DNA of 36,456 bases, taken from IMG/VR virus record IMGVR_UViG_3300020403_000036, positions 1-36,456 of that record. One strand, written 5' to 3'. The notes beneath the pieces were generated by a model. The model searched no databases, had not been told where the DNA came from, and saw only the letters and a list, made by a program, of their open reading frames with translations. How positions within the stretch are numbered: position 1 is the first letter of the stretch; each line of letters opens with the position of its first letter. The stretch is from a virus. Taxonomy: Duplodnaviria; Caudoviricetes. Position numbers and translations under genes: made by a program. Positions 25,940 to 35,390 of the stretch are shown here, piece after piece.

Positions 25940-26022
25940 TACTTCTTCTTTTTCTTTTTCTTAGCAGCGTAGCTTGAAGACTTCTTTTTTTTCATGTATT
26001 TAATCTTTCCTCCGAGTGGCAT
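25939..26022 (-). CDS. Poly-lysine micropeptide, 27 aa (below cutoff)
   Basis: MPLGGKIKYMKKKKSSSYAAKKKKKKK; first ORF after the promoter at 26046-26053 and TAATG-coupled to the next gene; mixed AAA/AAG codons. Confidence 0.55.
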   Translation of the reverse strand: MPLGGKIKYMKKKKSSSYAAKKKKKKK

Positions 26023-26045
26023 ATCTTTATATTTTAAGGTTTCAG

Positions 26046-26070
26046 CAAAGATATAAATTTTATAACTTTG
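26046..26070. promoter_or_regulatory. Back-to-back divergent promoter elements
   Basis: TATCTTTG on the minus strand (26046-26053) and TAACTTTG on the plus strand (26063-26070), 9 nt apart. Confidence 0.65.
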
Positions 26071-26078
26071 TTTTTCAA

Positions 26079-26561
26079 ATGAAATATACTGTAATAAAAA
26101 GAAAAAGGCACGACAGGGTTCAGCCTAAGCATGACTATCTAAAATACTTCAGGGTAGTTAGACACTGGATAAAGATGAAATACGACATTGGGCTACCTGA
26201 GCTTGAGATGTTACTCTTCTTGCACGGAGAAGGTTTGTTCAAGAAGTCAGACTTCGATGAGTTCCAGAAAATAATATCATGGGACACTGATAGATTCGAC
26301 AGAATGCTTCGAGACAAATGGATAATCGTCTGGCGCAAGCGAACAGGCAACGAAGCTACTTTGTACGAAATTTCCTACAAGGGTAAAAGAATGATTACGC
26401 ACATGTATAAAATCCTAAATGGTGAGGAGGTAATCTCAGAAGACTCAAAGCGAAACTCTATCTTCAAAAAAAATGCCCCATATAAAGATAAACTCTACAG
26501 GGGCATGATTAGAAGAATGAATGAAGCTATAAAACAATCACGACGTCCTTCAGTTGAATAA
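26079..26561 (+). CDS. Putative winged-helix (MarR-like) DNA-binding protein, 160 aa
   Basis: Only plausible plus-strand gene in the late arm; ATG at 26079 chosen because it follows the promoter; ELEMLLFL...FDRMLRDKWIIVWR...LYEISYKGKR resembles a wHTH. Confidence 0.6.
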   Translation: MKYTVIKRKRHDRVQPKHDYLKYFRVVRHWIKMKYDIGLPELEMLLFLHGEGLFKKSDFDEFQKIISWDTDRFDRMLRDKWIIVWRKRTGNEATLYEISYKGKRMITHMYKILNGEEVISEDSKRNSIFKKNAPYKDKLYRGMIRRMNEAIKQSRRPSVE

Positions 26562-26784
26562 CAGTCACTGGGTCTCCAGCGAGTACAACATCATAGGCGC
26601 TTCTCTTGTCGTAATATATTACATCATCGGCTTTTACTTGAGTAACTAAATCCCCAACCGTTTTTATCCTTCCCTTTCCATAGCGCATTTGACTTACGTC
26701 TTCACCTGAAAGAATAAGACCTGAGTCTGTTTTGACTTCTTCTTCTACTTTGTCAATGACAATAAAGTTATTTATGGCTCTCAT
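26527..26784 (-). CDS. groES: Co-chaperonin GroES, 85 aa
   Basis: Mobile loop KTDSGLIL, G...TVG, VK.DDVIYY, DVV; ATGA-coupled to groEL. Confidence 0.9.
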   Translation of the reverse strand: MRAINNFIVIDKVEEEVKTDSGLILSGEDVSQMRYGKGRIKTVGDLVTQVKADDVIYYDKRSAYDVVLAGDPVTVIQLKDVVIVL

Positions 26785-28379
26785 TTTCTTTTAAGTGTTA
26801 CTATTGCGTTTGTTGAAAGTATAGTTGTTGCTACAGATACTGCATTGCGTAGTGCGTTCTTAGTTACTTTAGCTGGGTCAATGATTCCCATCTTAAACAT
26901 ATCTCCGTACTTTTCTTCTTTTACATCGTATCCATAGTTCCAATCCACAATTTGAAAATCATTGTAGTATATCTTATTGAAATCTTTGCCAGCGTTCAAA
27001 AGTATTTGATGTGCTGGAGCTTTAAGGGCAGATGTAAAAATTGCGTGAGCAATTTTTTTTGATTTTTCGGACTTATCTTCATCTAATATGATGCATGATT
27101 TGTACAAAGCAATCCCTCCACCAGGCACAATCCCCTCTTCAAGAGCGGAGCGTACAGCACAAACAGCGTCATCAACTCTATCGTATAGCTCTTTCTGCTC
27201 CACATCAGAGTTGCCTCCAACGTAAATAATACCGATACCGCCTGTAAGACTTGCGATTCTTTCCTTCAAGAAGTCTTTGTCGCCTTTTACCTTAGCATTG
27301 TTATGCTGATGCCATAGCTCATCAACTCTCTTCTGGATATCGTCGTCGTTTCCTTTACCTCTTATGATGATGGTATCTTCACGACCTACAATAACTTTCT
27401 CAGCAAACCCAAGGTCATCCATAGAAATCAAACCTAAATCATCTCCTGTGCTTTCTGAAAAGTATTTTGCCCCAACGGCCAGCGCTATGTCGTTCATAAG
27501 CTCATGGCTTCTGTATCCGAACTGCGGAGGAATGATGTGACAAATCTTAAGACCATTACGAACTACGTTTGCAGCAAGTGTGTTAATCACATTCTGCGAG
27601 CAGTTGCCGATAATCAAAAGCTTTTTGTTCTCGTTGATTACTGGCTTTAGTATTCTTTCTATGCTAACGACATTAGAAATCTCTTGGTCTGCACAAAGCA
27701 CATGCACATCCTCAAGGATGCACTCATCACGCTTGTGGTCGTTGACAAACAGATGTGAGGTGTAACCTCTATCAATCCGTATACCCTCTGTAACTTCTGA
27801 GAATGTATCAGAGGTCTGTGACCTCTCAACTGTAACGATGCCGTTCTCACCCACCTTTTTGTAAGCTTCAGCTATCAACTTCCCAACCTTAGAGTCGTTA
27901 TTAGCAGAAACAGTAGCTACATCATCTAATCTTCGTCCGCTAACTTTCTTTGACTTCTTGTCCAGAAACTTCACAACCTCCTCTGACAATCTGGTAATCT
28001 CACGAATAACCTCCGTGACATTCACATCTTCATTAGACAAAAGCTCCATACCGTACTTAATCATAGCCTCGGTAAGAACAATCGCAGTCGTTGTGCCGTC
28101 ACCCGCACTCACTGCCGTTCTATCGGCAGCGTCTTTCATAATACGAACAGCCAGGTTCTCAACAGAATCCTCAAGTGCTATTGACCTTGCTACTGTAACA
28201 CCATCCTTTGTGATGGTGACTCCTCGTGTATGGTTTTCTGATTCGATGAGTACTGTGTTTCCTCGTGGGCCGAGTGTACTCTTGACTGCTTCTGAAATCT
28301 TTTCGATTCCATTTAGCAACTTGTCACGACCTTCTTGGTCGAACACAAGTTCTTTTGGTGTGTAACTTAATTCATTCAT
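26781..28379 (-). CDS. groEL: Chaperonin GroEL, 532 aa
   Basis: VKSTLGPRG, ITKDGVTVA, AGDGTTTA, EEGIVPGGG and GIIDPAKV motifs. Confidence 0.97.
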   Translation of the reverse strand: MNELSYTPKELVFDQEGRDKLLNGIEKISEAVKSTLGPRGNTVLIESENHTRGVTITKDGVTVARSIALEDSVENLAVRIMKDAADRTAVSAGDGTTTAIVLTEAMIKYGMELLSNEDVNVTEVIREITRLSEEVVKFLDKKSKKVSGRRLDDVATVSANNDSKVGKLIAEAYKKVGENGIVTVERSQTSDTFSEVTEGIRIDRGYTSHLFVNDHKRDECILEDVHVLCADQEISNVVSIERILKPVINENKKLLIIGNCSQNVINTLAANVVRNGLKICHIIPPQFGYRSHELMNDIALAVGAKYFSESTGDDLGLISMDDLGFAEKVIVGREDTIIIRGKGNDDDIQKRVDELWHQHNNAKVKGDKDFLKERIASLTGGIGIIYVGGNSDVEQKELYDRVDDAVCAVRSALEEGIVPGGGIALYKSCIILDEDKSEKSKKIAHAIFTSALKAPAHQILLNAGKDFNKIYYNDFQIVDWNYGYDVKEEKYGDMFKMGIIDPAKVTKNALRNAVSVATTILSTNAIVTLKRK

Positions 28380-28521: not shown

Positions 28522-29440
28522 AATCAACATATTAACATAAAAGACTAATAATCAATCAGTTACGAAAAAAATGTTTACATAAACTCAGCAGTCTGATGTT
28601 GATAATCAACATTCTGGCTAGTAATTAATATGTAATCCTATAAAGAATAGGTATAAGTTTAGTTCTCTGTAGTCGTATTTATTGTCTCTTGGAAAGTATG
28701 ACCATCCGATTAGCGGTCCGTGCTTAACTCTGTTAGATATGCTTAGTGTGATGTCTGTATTCATTCGGCTAATGTAATCAATACCTCTGAACAAATTGTG
28801 TTAGATATATGGAACTTGAGGGTTATACATACATATTACGTGTCGTGCCTCAAAACTAAAATCGCTTTTTTTCTCGGTGGGGGGTACATCTTTGAGCCAT
28901 GACATGCAGATTTTTTGACGTTTTTAACTGCCTGACTATCAGATAGTTACATTCTTGTTGCAATAGCTTTCACATCGCACACCCTCTGTAAATACCTGAG
29001 TATCAACGACTTACAGCTATCCCTGTTGTATCTTTTTAGATACAGAGAGAGAAAGCATAACACCCTCACTATCAACAAGTTACACTTATATTTTAGGGGT
29101 GAATACAATATATCATAACTACTTGATTATCAATAAGTTACAAACACAATTTTATTGTGTAATCGAAGGAAACAATACCAAAACAAAACCATCAAATTAT
29201 CATATTCTCAATAAATACCCCAAAAACACCTATTTTATTGCGAAATTCTCATGAGAATAATGCAACGAAATCGACATTTTATTAAATTATTCACAACAAA
29301 AACATTGTTTTGCTAAGATGTTCATAAAAATGCTATGATTTTAAGATTATTTTAGTGTTTTGTGCCAAGCCCATAACTACCTGAAAGCCAGCCACTTACA
29401 GCCATATCAGAAACGTAACTTGCTCATTATCAGCATTTTA
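28522..29440. repeat. Dispersed array of WATCARnnnnTTR (IHF-consensus) sites, several as inverted pairs
   Basis: Exact plus-strand matches at 28522-28534, 28550-28562, 28937-28949, 29001-29013, 29070-29082, 29128-29140 and 29428-29440; minus-strand match at 29116-29128. Confidence 0.75.
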
Positions 29441-29459
29441 TAGTCTAAATATATATATA

Positions 29460-29486
29460 TACGTTTGTGTCATCGTTCTTTGACAT
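29460..29486 (+). promoter_or_regulatory. Early promoter -7 element (TACGTTTG) followed by boxA-like GTTCTTTGACAT
   Basis: TAnnTTTG at 29460-29467 after a (TA)n tract; 29475-29486 resembles the rrn antitermination boxA (E. coli GCTCTTTAACA). Confidence 0.6.
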
Positions 29487-30035
29487 ATCAGCACACACAT
29501 ACAGCTCCCGACCTCGTGGAGTGTAACGCGTGTAGGAGATTTCCTACTTGTAAGAATTTTCTTACAGGTTCGAGAGTGCCTGCAAACCTGAGAGAGTAGC
29601 GTGTATAGGTGTAGCCGAGTTTGAATTGCCGAAGTACAAACGGAGTACAAAGTAGCAACGGAAGTTATCCCCGTCTTTACGGGTTAAAACGATAGCATTC
29701 TATCAAGTTATTCAACGAGCAAAACGTACGAAGTAAGGCAACCCCTTCTCATTCGGGGGTAATAGATGAGGAACTGCAAAGCCGAAAGGCTTAAAGCAAG
29801 ATAGATAGCCAACCATGGGCAACAGATTGAGGCATCGTGTAAAGTGCAACGACAAGTTTGAAAACTTGCGTGAAGTGGGATAAAAGCCACCGAATATCAA
29901 CTGCTTATTTTACGAAGTAAGTCATGGGAAAAACAAGTACAAGAACGCCATGCGTTACGAGAGAGCGTACCTGAGAAAGCGTGAAAGGTGAAAACCGAAT
30001 AACCCTATCAGAGTGAAATCTGGTAGGGTAACTAC
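29475..30035 (+). ncRNA. Candidate large structured non-coding RNA or 5' leader (~560 nt)
   Basis: No credible ORF; more GC-rich than its flanks; about 12 short hairpins with A-rich linkers, including GAAA and UACG tetraloops and G-U pairs that favour the plus strand. Confidence 0.65.
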
Positions 30036-30073
30036 ATTTTTAACACTATTATTAATCTTTAAATTCAATTATT

Positions 30074-30484
30074 ATGAAAACTCAAAATGTAACTAAATCC
30101 GTAAGTAATGCAACAAAGAAGGCAAGAGCAAAGAAAATCAGCAAAGCCATCGAATTGCAACGTAAATTGAAATCAGCACACGAGAAAGAAATCCGTGGGC
30201 TTAATTCACTTGTGAACTACGTCACAGCCAAAGGTAAATTTTCAGAATTTACAGAAGGCAAAAAAGCAATGGAGAACTTCATTGCATACGTCAATGACCG
30301 AGATAACGTACAGATAAAAATCAGCGATATATCAGTCAAAAACGTAGTGGCTAATTTGACCGAGAGAGAACTCAACAAGAAAGACGGAACGAAGAAAACT
30401 ATCTTCTCAACGTACCACACAAAACTTGCTGTTTCTCGTATGGGCAAAGCGTTAAGAAAGCAGAGAATTTCAGCCAAAGCTTAA
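30074..30484 (+). CDS. Basic early protein, 136 aa
   Basis: First ORF of the right arm with an A/T-rich leader; Lys-rich; its stop codon lies within hammerhead stem I. Confidence 0.8.
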   Translation: MKTQNVTKSVSNATKKARAKKISKAIELQRKLKSAHEKEIRGLNSLVNYVTAKGKFSEFTEGKKAMENFIAYVNDRDNVQIKISDISVKNVVANLTERELNKKDGTKKTIFSTYHTKLAVSRMGKALRKQRISAKA

Positions 30485-30534
30485 CTGATGAGACTTCAAT
30501 AGTCGAAACACCATGTTCGCATGGTGTATTAAGC
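30479..30534 (+). ncRNA. Type I hammerhead ribozyme
   Basis: Stem I GCUUAA/UUAAGC; core CUGAUGA (30485-30491); stem II GACU-UCAAU-AGUC; GAAA; stem III CACCAUG-UUCG-CAUGGUG; cleavage triplet GUA (30526-30528). Confidence 0.93.
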
Positions 30535-30556
30535 AATTTTTTTAATTACATAAATC

Positions 30557-30778
30557 ATGAAGCGTACACGAATAAAGTACAAAGTAAATGCTGGAGAATT
30601 AGGACAATTCTTGAAGCAGAAACACGAGAACACGAAGAAAAAGTGGGGAGAACTCGTGCGACATACCCTTATTGAAAGGGGGCTTGAGGTTACAAGCGAC
30701 AACTTCAAAAAGGTAAGTGCCGAACTCAACAAGGCACAAAGGTTTAAGATATTAGAACGTAAACTGGGTATGATATGA
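30557..30778 (+). CDS. Hypothetical protein, 73 aa
   Basis: Packed plus-strand ORF starting 29 nt after the predicted cleavage site. Confidence 0.7.
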   Translation: MKRTRIKYKVNAGELGQFLKQKHENTKKKWGELVRHTLIERGLEVTSDNFKKVSAELNKAQRFKILERKLGMI

Positions 30779-31051: not shown

Positions 31052-31243
31052 ATGAGTAGATGTAAATGTGGAAACGATATACCCCAAGGCAGAGTAGCTT
31101 TGGGGTTTTTTAATTGTGTCAGTTGTTCATCAACTGAAATGTATAGCTATGTGCCGATTATATACCATAAGACAGGCAACACAATACAAATTGTAGACCA
31201 AGCTACAAGCAGAGCTGTACATAAGTCTTGGAGGAGAAAGTAA
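31052..31243 (+). CDS. Small Zn-finger protein (DksA/TraR-like C4 spacing), 63 aa
   Basis: CKCG..IP.GR......CVSCS motif. Confidence 0.6.
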   Translation: MSRCKCGNDIPQGRVALGFFNCVSCSSTEMYSYVPIIYHKTGNTIQIVDQATSRAVHKSWRRK

Positions 31244-33074: not shown

Positions 33075-34328
33075 ATGGAGACGATTGAAGAAAAATTAGT
33101 TACTACATACCCAAACGACGAAAAGTACTATGTACATAATTGTGTTTGGGCTGACCATTGCGATGCCTATATTCCAAAGGCAGAGGCATATCAATGTGAT
33201 GTTAGTGGAAGTTGGTATCATGAAAATGATGTTGACGAGTACATGATATACTGCTACGACATAGAAGCCCATGTTGAGAACGACTATGCTTGGTATTGTG
33301 AAGTTTCTCAGGAGTGGTATTATAACACAGGAGACAGGGGTCAACTCTACGATGGTGGATATATATATGAGGGAGACACAGGAGATTATGTTTACATAGA
33401 TTATGGTCAAGCAGATGGATACTATTTGCATCGTGACGAGAGTGCATGGTGCTACGACATAGAAGATTATGTACATGAAGATGACGCACATTGGTGTGAA
33501 GATGATGGCGAGTACTACTATGATGAAGATAAAATGCCAAGTAAAGAAGATGATGAGCATATCTGTACATATCACGAATCACCTGCAGTAAGGCACATTT
33601 TGATGTCAGAGTCCTATAAAATGAGAATAGGTTTCGAGATAGAGAAGACGTACTTTAAAGCATTTGACGGAGGTTATGCAGAAAACAAAGGGAACTATGT
33701 AGGTTCTCATGAATTGTTCAAGGGTTACGAGACAGACAGCTCGTGTGGAGTTGAGGCTATCACAAACATACTTCCACTGGATAGTCCAAGAAGTTTGAGT
33801 AGGAATGAAGTGTTTGAATACTTTGACGAGGCAGAATGCATTATCAATTCGCCAGTGAGCAGACGTTGTGGTGGGCATATCTGTATATCTGTACATGGAA
33901 TGAGTGGGTATGACATACTCAACAAAGTCAGAGGTAACATGGCTATACTCTACTCAATGTACAGGTACAGACTAAGCAAGGAGCATTGCAATGAAAACAA
34001 AAAGCTTGTGCGTGAACACAATACAAAGTATTCTCCAGTCAATGTCAAAGACTTTGGAATTGAGATACGAATACCAAGTGCTGTGAAGAATGTAAGACAG
34101 CTAAAGTTACGCTATGATTTGATTTACAAAATCATGTATCACAGCATGCGAACAAGGCAATCATACGACAAACTACTTGAGAAGATTGACTACATACTTA
34201 TGCGTATGTACAAAAACAGGGAGAGAGTTGACAACGTAAAGCGTTTGTCTTATGACTTCAGGAAGTACCTACTTAATGACGAAACCCCATACAGCATACA
34301 GGAATTTTTAGAACGAGAAGAAGATTAA
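33075..34328 (+). CDS. Putative amidoligase (COOH-NH2 ligase, glutamine synthetase-like fold) with an acidic Cys/aromatic repeat N-terminus, 417 aa
   Basis: RIGFEIEK, ETDSSCGVE, RCGGHICIS, KY..VN and IEIR motifs in the order expected for the putative amidoligase family. Confidence 0.75.
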   Translation: METIEEKLVTTYPNDEKYYVHNCVWADHCDAYIPKAEAYQCDVSGSWYHENDVDEYMIYCYDIEAHVENDYAWYCEVSQEWYYNTGDRGQLYDGGYIYEGDTGDYVYIDYGQADGYYLHRDESAWCYDIEDYVHEDDAHWCEDDGEYYYDEDKMPSKEDDEHICTYHESPAVRHILMSESYKMRIGFEIEKTYFKAFDGGYAENKGNYVGSHELFKGYETDSSCGVEAITNILPLDSPRSLSRNEVFEYFDEAECIINSPVSRRCGGHICISVHGMSGYDILNKVRGNMAILYSMYRYRLSKEHCNENKKLVREHNTKYSPVNVKDFGIEIRIPSAVKNVRQLKLRYDLIYKIMYHSMRTRQSYDKLLEKIDYILMRMYKNRERVDNVKRLSYDFRKYLLNDETPYSIQEFLEREED

Positions 34329-34331
34329 ATT

Positions 34332-35390
34332 ATGTGTATAATTATTGTAAAACAAGACGACGACAAAGTAATCAAGAGAGATACCTTGATTGCTTCATCA
34401 GCTAAAAACCCTCATGGATTGGGTGTTCTTTGGCTGGACAAGTGGAACATTGAATACTTTGACAGCACAGAATACGAGGTGCTACTTACAAAGCGACCAT
34501 TCATTGCCCACTTCAGATATGCAACGGTTGGTAAGGTGTCGAGAGAAAACTGCCACCCGTTCAACATCAACAAGAATGAAGTGCTGTTTCAGAACGGAAC
34601 TATCTACAATCTTGGGGATGCAGACACAACAGACACAGAAGCTATGGCTCGGATACTCAAGAACATACCCAAGAAACATTGGAGAGATGTGCTTGAGATG
34701 AATGACTGCAGGTTTGTAACAGCAGACCTGAAGAACAAAACATTCGAGTTGTACAACGAGCAGGATTGGGTACAGCGTAATGGAATATATTACAGCAAGA
34801 AGAATGTGCTTGACCTTGTGCCTGTTGCAGTGTATGGTACACTAAGGAAAGACTATTCAAACTACTCAAGATACCTTCGCACTTCAGCTTATGTAGGCAA
34901 GGGTTACACCAAAGACAGGTATCCACTTGTCATAACTGGACTACCCTATCTGCTAAACAAGAAGGGTGTAGGTTTCAATGTAGAAGTTGATGTGTTTCTG
35001 GTTGACCAGTACACACTATCTCAACTTGATATTCTTGAGGGACACCCTAATTGGTACAAGCGAGAGAAGATTAAGATTGAAATGGAGAACGAAAGCTTCA
35101 TCAATGCATGGATATACTTCAATGACACTGAAGACACTGGAATATACCACGAGAGATACAATCAGAACATACTACCAAGCTACGACAGATTCAATACTTG
35201 GGACGCATGGGATGATGATGACTTTGATGATGACTTCGGAACAGCTACATACGAGCCGAAGGTTACAGAAGAAAGGTGTTCTTGCGGGGACACACTTCAC
35301 TTTGACCCATACTATCAAGACGCTCAGTATTGTATGAGTTGTGAGGACTATATATATAATGATGATAATAAAATTTTAGAACATGAATAA
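34332..35390 (+). CDS. Class II glutamine amidotransferase fused to a gamma-glutamylcyclotransferase (AIG2-like) domain, 352 aa
   Basis: N-terminal nucleophile MC, NPHG.G, AHFRYAT, NCHPF, QNG, TDTE; then VAVYGTLRK and LDILEGHPNWYKR; C-terminal CSCG...CMSC. Confidence 0.85.
   Translation: MCIIIVKQDDDKVIKRDTLIASSAKNPHGLGVLWLDKWNIEYFDSTEYEVLLTKRPFIAHFRYATVGKVSRENCHPFNINKNEVLFQNGTIYNLGDADTTDTEAMARILKNIPKKHWRDVLEMNDCRFVTADLKNKTFELYNEQDWVQRNGIYYSKKNVLDLVPVAVYGTLRKDYSNYSRYLRTSAYVGKGYTKDRYPLVITGLPYLLNKKGVGFNVEVDVFLVDQYTLSQLDILEGHPNWYKREKIKIEMENESFINAWIYFNDTEDTGIYHERYNQNILPSYDRFNTWDAWDDDDFDDDFGTATYEPKVTEERCSCGDTLHFDPYYQDAQYCMSCEDYIYNDDNKILEHE

Follow-up and report, generated by a model that had tools for sequence, protein, structure and literature searches.

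Large ornate RNAs are rare in bacteria and phages, and two phage-borne examples, GOLLD and ROOL, are still without a function. The early transcript of phage T7 carries hairpins, which are RNase III sites, between its early genes; in phage lambda, the boxB hairpin lies directly after boxA and the N protein is Arg-rich and unfolded; and in type III toxin-antitoxin systems, a tandem array of short RNA repeats precedes the toxin. The available part of PMC5737381 gives ROOL (RF03087) an average length of 581 nt and three pseudoknots. In the accessible text of PMC12286853, ROOL forms RNA-only octamer cages, and GOLLD (RF02032) is a large RNA whose 3' region is conserved and whose 5' region varies. 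According to the accessible sections of PMC3088659, hammerheads in phages lie beside variable genes and may divide transcripts into gene-length mRNAs. The available text of PMC12360218 has boxA recruiting NusB/E in rrn and lambda antitermination and adds that boxA can promote Rho termination too.

Here, we compared a locus in a podophage record with these systems. The original prediction placed a self-excising unit at 29460-30534, in which a hammerhead would release a large structured RNA together with one basic protein gene behind a promoter. All four elements proved to be present, as judged from box position (promoter), covariation (RNA), composition (protein) and core (hammerhead); a boxA (29475-29487) and a terminal hairpin (30002-30029) had been missed. 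The reading that we favour, with modest confidence, is that segmentation of an early transcript yields a stand-alone scaffold RNA of GOLLD/ROOL type at this locus, the hammerhead being one interchangeable cut site. The scaffold role in this reading is proposed purely by analogy.

The probable early region and its large RNA

The window, meaning the whole 36,456-nt stretch of DNA analysed here, is a 36-kb virus record whose left part codes for the capsid, portal and terminase proteins of a podophage. Among the best-matching records for its major capsid protein, at 45-61% identity, are those of Flavobacterium, Maribacter and Cellulophaga phages. Minus-strand groEL and groES extend up to 28379, the strand bias flips at ~29470, and a run of small plus-strand genes follows. 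The sequencing runs containing the stretch were mostly marine metagenomes, with no RNA run listed among them. From layout, relatives and motifs, we infer a flavobacterial host, and the region from ~29470 is likely the early region. Positions 29460-30556 are likely the head of the phage early transcript, and a terminator-like hairpin lies downstream of the unit at 31081-31106.

Several other features of the window were observed. The groES/groEL genes (26527-28379) adjoin the early control region and are syntenic across the clade. A lone plus-strand 181-aa gene at 26016-26561, amid minus-strand genes, is clade-conserved and gave a weak regulator match. At 34332-35390, a glutamine amidotransferase-like domain is fused to a gamma-glutamyl cyclotransferase, and a 417-aa Tyr/Asp/Cys-rich repeat protein is encoded upstream of it (33075-34328). 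Five imperfect 32-nt palindromic repeats, operator- or origin-like, occupy 28925-29405 upstream of the promoter (spacing 64, 69, 58 and 258), within the segments 28925-29147 and 29374-29433; close relatives keep the palindrome core, which also occurs at 28599 and at 29423, the latter copy lying 37 nt ahead of the promoter box. The start of the early region carries two short sites:

29460-29467, plus strand: promoter -7 box TACGTTTG, fitting the flavobacterial sigma-A box TAnnTTTG; predicted start A29472
29475-29487, plus strand: 13-nt boxA-like site GTTCTTTGACATA, kept in 9/9 close loci covering the site

The Flavobacterium TAnnTTTG consensus sits at -12 to -5 in the available part of PMC9723704, so transcription is predicted to start near A29472. 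The 8-mer by itself was not above chance (56 in the window vs 46.5 expected). By position, however, the box was exact in 5 of 9 close loci, and the remaining 4 have a one-mismatch form of it in the same place, which supports the promoter call despite the chance-level frequency.

We then considered the boxA-like site. A GTDB scan covering 2 of the 64 parts of the collection found its motif at 121 loci, mostly in Bacteroidota. The motif stood upstream of rRNA in 86 of them (81 with a 23S start, 5 with a 16S start), where it typically followed tRNA-Ala. We take this place in Bacteroidota rRNA operons to be the boxA position, and the phage motif is the same sequence as that in host-type rRNA operons (rrn-type boxA). 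By analogy with rRNA operons, the phage boxA likely serves NusB/NusE antitermination. In two Bacteroidota records (L099, L133), the motif lay directly upstream of tRNA arrays.

Directly behind boxA lies the large RNA, with the following parts:

29488-30029, plus strand: large structured non-coding RNA (covariation, RNAalifold and helix scan)
29488-29618, plus strand: 5' domain of the RNA (covariation model)
29627-29740, plus strand: multiloop of the RNA (covariation model)
29747-52/29766-71, plus strand: pseudoknot PK1 (helix scan, covariation)
29813-17/29923-27, plus strand: pseudoknot PK2 (helix scan, covariation)
29945-48/29979-82, plus strand: pseudoknot PK3 (helix scan, covariation)
30002-30029, plus strand: terminal hairpin, which ends the large RNA; loop GUGAAA here, GNGAA in the long form

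The RNA is ~550 nt long in the window, with an aligned span of 500-581 nt among homologs, and 29475-30035 has 44% GC vs 37% window-wide. Folded singly, the window RNA showed modest stability (z -2.25). We aligned 10 sequences, the 9 homologs being 61-91% identical to the window; they came from 15 metagenome loci found with a protein-derived pattern and from L001 in viral contigs, with L050 omitted as a copy of L047. RNAalifold returned 111 pairs, 49 of them with two-sided changes. In the combined 110-pair model, 97.8% of cells were paired and 50 of the 110 pairs had two-sided changes, vs 27.3 ± 2.8 in shuffles (0/500) and 3-8 in slid controls; these controls flatter the model, since the structure was derived from the same alignment and the 10 sequences are related. 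Each pseudoknot covaried: PK1 as UCUCAU/AUGAGG, UCCAAU/AUUGGG and UCUAAU/AUUAGG, PK2 in four variants, and PK3 as ACGC/GCGU, AUGC/GCAU and AUGU/ACAU. The terminal hairpin had two-sided changes in 7 of its 10 pairs. G-U outnumbered A-C cells 87:7, a ratio that is not independent because the structure was derived on the plus strand. No conserved reading frame was found in the RNA (longest stop-free runs of 24-69 codons, in frames that vary among the 10 sequences). Read from this alignment, the RNA is a real conserved structure with three pseudoknots, kept by compensating changes in relatives.

A type III toxin-antitoxin system, an idea raised at the outset, fails for want of a repeat array, none being present inside the RNA; a ToxN/CptN/TenpN-like nuclease was absent from the Pfam, PADLOC and NCBIfam results for the locus protein and from its listed fold rows. 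Group I/II intron and HDV-like readings, considered by eye, were dropped, and Rfam gave no such match; a tmRNA reading was also dropped, as ARAGORN reported none and the window RNA has no T-arm. Among viral contigs, a 16-nt pattern from the RNA hit 36 loci, 35 of them by chance, and a second pattern 5 loci, 4 of them by chance. There was no match to the RNA in cultured phage records. Our literature search returned no description of it: a search of 6 supplement files of PMC10690425 for four short motifs found none of them, and the available part of bioRxiv 10.64898/2026.09.22.753630 contains nothing bearing on it. A contig of run X10 joins 29467 to 30026 with unknown letters between, where the RNA is diverged or missing; reading this joint as a deletion of 29468-30025 was rejected, the intervening letters being unknown.

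The basic protein and its distant relatives

The first gene behind the RNA encodes a small protein:

30074-30484, plus strand: 136-aa Lys-rich ORF, predicted all-helical; unnamed phage family

The protein contains 24 K and 8 R vs 12 D+E. Its family gave 104 profile matches and has more than 100 members at 90% clustering, of which one, P0106, is fused to Rho_N (E 1e-8). An AlphaFold2 model from 79 sequences was all-helical (pLDDT 87.8; 89 residues at pLDDT 90 or more). The structure prediction and Foldseek comparison suggested earlier as a check ended with a confident helical model and no clear fold match, since no row in PDB and BFVD reached E 0.001 or better. The protein had no Pfam, PHROG, PADLOC or NCBIfam match and no clear match in a PDB profile search; P0041, P0001 and the L205 protein had none among cultured phage records, and a longer-form search gave none, which is weak evidence. 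On the predicted model, the family is a new helical one. The protein likely binds nucleic acid.

That nucleic acid might be DNA, for example the upstream 32-nt repeats, and the RNA would then have no part in it. In favour are the small size, basic charge and helical model of the protein, its weak top VIA row, an ECF sigma domain (Z 4.9, rmsd 4.2, 77 aligned), and the five palindromic repeats as a possible target, with the core copy next to the promoter box that close relatives keep. However, Z 4.9 falls within the chance range for helical models, and the palindrome motif was not found in L038, L042 and L196 despite the kept protein family. We consider DNA binding of this kind unlikely.

We examined how RNA and protein travel together. 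The RNA precedes the ORF in 10/10 close loci with upstream cover. In distant members (L038, L039/L040, L041, L042, L046, L048, L051, L055), the gene comes first after the promoter where upstream sequence is covered, and a long non-coding stretch follows it where cover allows, the reverse of the order in the window. In L038, L039, L042, L051 and L055, the boxA-like site has remained in front of the non-coding stretch even with the gene order flipped. The distant stretch covaries as well (13 of 45 pairs, three sequences). Comparing the window RNA with the L038/L039/L042 RNA by nhmmer gave no significant likeness, and R2, a model of the RNA middle, had no match in 10 distant sources, so that homology of the distant non-coding stretches is only partial. 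A model of the 3' PK3 module matched in 3 of 13 sources, each time where the non-coding stretch ends (L201, 35.8 bits, E 8e-5; L204, 30.2, E 0.001; L205 weakly, 19.3, E 0.16), with off-target rows up to 17.4 bits. The module was not found in L195 and L196, though the family protein is kept there; nor was the hairpin motif found in the distant loci scanned.

A survey via a neighbouring gene yielded 26 loci, 13 of which extend 2.6 kb or more beyond groEL. In 9 of these 13 (L203 judged solely from its ORF list), 600-900 non-coding bases come after a small basic gene, which encodes the family protein in four and another basic protein in five; the hhalign probability for the L201, L205 and L206 basic genes was under 6%. 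The remaining four (L209, L210, L211, L216) showed no such RNA at the place read. MW202828.1 has neither the family protein nor the large RNA, and its early region is headed by a boxA-like site with a short non-coding stretch that has a tRNA-like end.

The long stretches after the first gene lie at 4345-4925 in L038, 4440-5040 in L039, 4330-5050 in L042, 11075-11880 in L201, 4271-4890 in L202, 6681-7445 in L205 and 10882-11510 in L206. Their sequences are mosaic, and most end in a T-arm, which in the distant loci closes locally to form a minihelix. They could belong to a single modular RNA superfamily or to more than one. L046, L051 and L055 carry 650-750-nt non-coding stretches downstream of the basic ORF, unlike the window RNA; those of L051 and L055 start with a tRNA-like hairpin and a boxA-like site.

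These data bear on a proposal compatible with the preferred scaffold-RNA reading: irrespective of the cut site, the large RNA and the protein of the basic first gene would make up a specific ribonucleoprotein. The constant order in the close loci, the basic gene and non-coding stretch in 9 of 13 survey loci, the joint absence of both from MW202828.1 and the Rho_N fusion all point to it, and RNA-driven viral scans gave no RNA copy without the protein. On the other hand, first-gene and first-RNA positions by themselves account for adjacency, most loci came to light via the protein, and the RNA-driven scans added no new records. The basic genes of L201, L205 and L206 have no demonstrable homology to the family, L195 and L196 keep the protein with no PK3 module found, and ROOL and GOLLD assemble without protein in the accessible text of PMC12286853. 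A specific ribonucleoprotein is thus possible but short of probable. We hold with similar reserve the wider proposal of a two-part module at the start of the early operon in a clade of marine flavobacterial podophages, in which a modular pseudoknotted 550-900-nt RNA, transcribed behind an rRNA-type boxA of the host, and a small basic protein that binds it would form an early ribonucleoprotein, with hammerhead, tRNA-like minihelix or GNGAA hairpin as freely exchanged cutters. If it were true, the module's GNGAA hairpin would be an unrecognised processing signal.

Elements exchanged after the basic gene

The end of the basic gene and the start of the next one contain the following features:

30479-30534, plus strand: type I hammerhead, core and stems; overlaps the ORF stop; predicted cut A30528/U30529
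30529-30556, plus strand: 28-nt A/U-rich leader of the next gene (..TTACATAAATC ATG), common to hammerhead, hairpin and tRNA-like slots
30557-30778, plus strand: next gene, 73 aa; hairpin instead of hammerhead upstream of it in L052 and in the X9 contig

The hammerhead core is intact (CUGAUGA / GAAA / GUA), with stems of 6, 4 and 8 bp and the open end at stem I, and its fold is the MFE of 30479-30534. The descriptor had 0 matches in 20 shuffled windows, contigs of runs X4 and X5 showed 0 differences from the window, and stem II covaries in L043/L044 (GACU/AGUC to GCCU/AGGC). Against RAGATH-1-hammerhead (RF03152), the window scored 25.7 bits and L044 27.2, both below the gathering score of 56.3. 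An exact hammerhead pattern search gave 0 matches. No loop I-loop II tertiary contact was identified, so the hammerhead may be slow. Predicted cleavage after A30528 would leave a 1057-nt 5' piece, as the original ~1.05 kb had it, and a 28-nt leader for the next gene.

Related elements were also recorded. The L043/L044 hammerhead has a CCGAUGA core (U4 to C), a GUC triplet and a stem III identical to the window's. L049 carries two near-identical hammerhead-like elements between early genes (~98-165 and ~790-860) with a 2x2 mismatch in stem III; they were counted by eye, because the descriptor missed both (2 bp before the stem III mismatch; the MFE folds differently). Descriptor matches at window 12989 (minus strand), in L041 and in L042 were discarded as chance, with weak stems and long loops. 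An X13 contig matching loosely over 30476-30511, with unrelated flanks, was excluded from counts.

We next compared the slot after the ORF in 13 close loci. It held the hammerhead in 4 (the window, L043, L044 and, by eye, L049) and a hairpin in 9 (L001, L045, L047, L050, L052, L053, L054, L056, L057), this hairpin being a second copy of the element that ends the large RNA. The phages with a hairpin in the slot include ones with a 93-95% identical protein. Among eight sequencing runs, two had the hammerhead (X4, X5) and five the hairpin type (X9, X10, X11, X12, X13), while X8 was without cover. The exchange is seen in a single 4367-nt contig of X9, which matches 29200-30473, has 79 other letters for 30474-30537 and then continues into the same downstream gene. 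The tree of 11 ORFs requires the hammerhead to have changed twice, since supported branches place its carriers in two separate subclades, and the window ORF is 89-91% identical to hairpin-bearing genes vs 70% to those of hammerhead-bearing L043/L044.

A third kind of element, tRNA-like, occupies equivalent slots in L045, L047 and L056, between early genes and directly before the shared start motif. These degenerate elements have an acceptor-like stem, a T-arm and an enlarged middle (L047, oriented, ~1730-1890; L056 ~2270-2425; L045 ~1260-1355). Further tRNA-like elements end the non-coding stretch in L038, L042, L201, L202 and L205. One A/U-rich start motif follows the hammerhead, the hairpin and the L047/L056 elements alike, 22-28 nt after their ends. 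Bacteroidetes have no Shine-Dalgarno and rely on mRNA structure and upstream adenines, as set out in the available portion of PMC6847099. Most likely, the hammerhead is one of several swappable transcript-cutting sites, the swapping being observed and the cutting proposed. The hairpin makes the weakest case among the slot elements as a cutting site and could instead be a terminator, a stabiliser or a protein site.

The exchange decides against the self-excising unit of the original prediction, in which release of a dedicated ~1.05-kb RNA-plus-ORF piece is itself the functional system. The cut would give the predicted piece in the window, in L043/L044 and in runs X4/X5, and the hammerhead recurs at the slot in two subclades and in L049. 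However, it is absent from 9 of the 13 close loci, where the hairpin takes its place, and from 5 of the 8 runs; the same hairpin also sits between RNA and ORF, at odds with a conserved 1.05-kb species; L049 has a second hammerhead-like copy between other genes; and distant relatives have the gene before the RNA and no hammerhead after the gene. In the close loci, the expected co-occurrence held for RNA and ORF only. Because the hammerhead assorts independently, the dedicated unit is largely refuted, and we regard it as very improbable.

The hairpins raise a further reading, also mooted earlier, in which boxA and GNGAA-loop hairpins serve as a nut-like site, the hairpins being boxB-like and the basic protein an N analogue. 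Its boxA part stood, with a real boxA at the place described above. GNGAA-type hairpins flank the gene in 9 loci, with a conserved loop that resembles lambda boxB loops; the protein is basic and first in the operon, and the terminator-like hairpin lies downstream. On the other side, no boxB directly follows boxA, the hairpin lying ~520 nt away; unlike N, the protein is rich in Lys and its helical core is modelled as folded with confidence; the hairpin is replaceable by a hammerhead, and its motif was missing from the distant loci scanned; and a nut site needs no 550 nt with three pseudoknots. N/nut-like antitermination appears slightly less likely still than DNA binding.

These four alternatives (ribonucleoprotein, N/nut, DNA binding and hammerhead unit) rank below the scaffold RNA, although the readings are not mutually exclusive. 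Under the preferred scaffold-RNA reading, host RNA polymerase would start near 29472, as the promoter box suggests, and boxA would recruit host NusB/NusE, as in rRNA operons, allowing 550 untranslated bases to escape Rho termination. The RNA would fold into a multi-domain structure with three pseudoknots, for which covariation was observed, and could act as a scaffold or self-assembling particle like GOLLD and ROOL, most likely binding host or phage factors soon after infection begins. Cuts in the transcript would fall at the borders of cassettes, 22-28 nt ahead of each A/U-rich start site; the cutter would be the hammerhead in the window, and tRNA-like elements or the conserved hairpin in relatives. 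Such cuts would release the RNA and leave the downstream genes with short, unstructured leaders, and the basic protein would be a co-transcribed first gene product, probably a nucleic-acid binder.

Comparison with known systems

No Rfam model matched the window at gathering level; at lax E-values, the matches were a weak RAGATH-1-hammerhead, a tmRNA T-arm, DUF805b and chance rows. The window RNA is similar to ROOL in size and pseudoknot number, a comparison covering length, pseudoknot number and the covariance model. The RF03087 model gave no match, but the control genomes were silent too and filters may drop distant members. Unlike ROOL, the window RNA stands away from a tRNA island (ARAGORN found neither tRNA nor tmRNA in the window) and heads the early operon, behind boxA and beside a basic gene.

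Like GOLLD, with its conserved 3' region, the window RNA shares only a 3' module, that of PK3, with distant relatives, and it is shorter (500-580 nt vs often over 800 for GOLLD). The RF02032 model had 0 matches at E 10 in the window genome and at E 1 in 5 relatives, the controls giving only sub-cut-off ones. That the RNA is a new GOLLD/ROOL-like large RNA class is well supported. It would add to the large classes one that covaries strongly and keeps its place at the start of a probable early operon, and a host antitermination signal and a candidate protein partner nearby make the function of a large phage RNA easier to test.

The exact exchange of hammerhead and hairpin between phages whose neighbours are 93-95% identical amounts to a natural experiment on what self-cleaving ribozymes do for phages, and it marks the hairpin as a candidate for a new processing signal. 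Like the RNase III sites of T7, the elements here lie between early genes and would segment one long transcript; unlike those sites, they alternate among at least three kinds, and the hairpin has no assigned enzyme. The hammerhead resembles the intergenic phage hammerheads in the accessible sections of Perreault 2011 (PMC3088659) in its type I core between phage genes, its place near a start codon and its variable neighbours. It differs from them in that it swaps with a non-catalytic hairpin in near-identical phages, with tRNA-like elements standing in equivalent slots.
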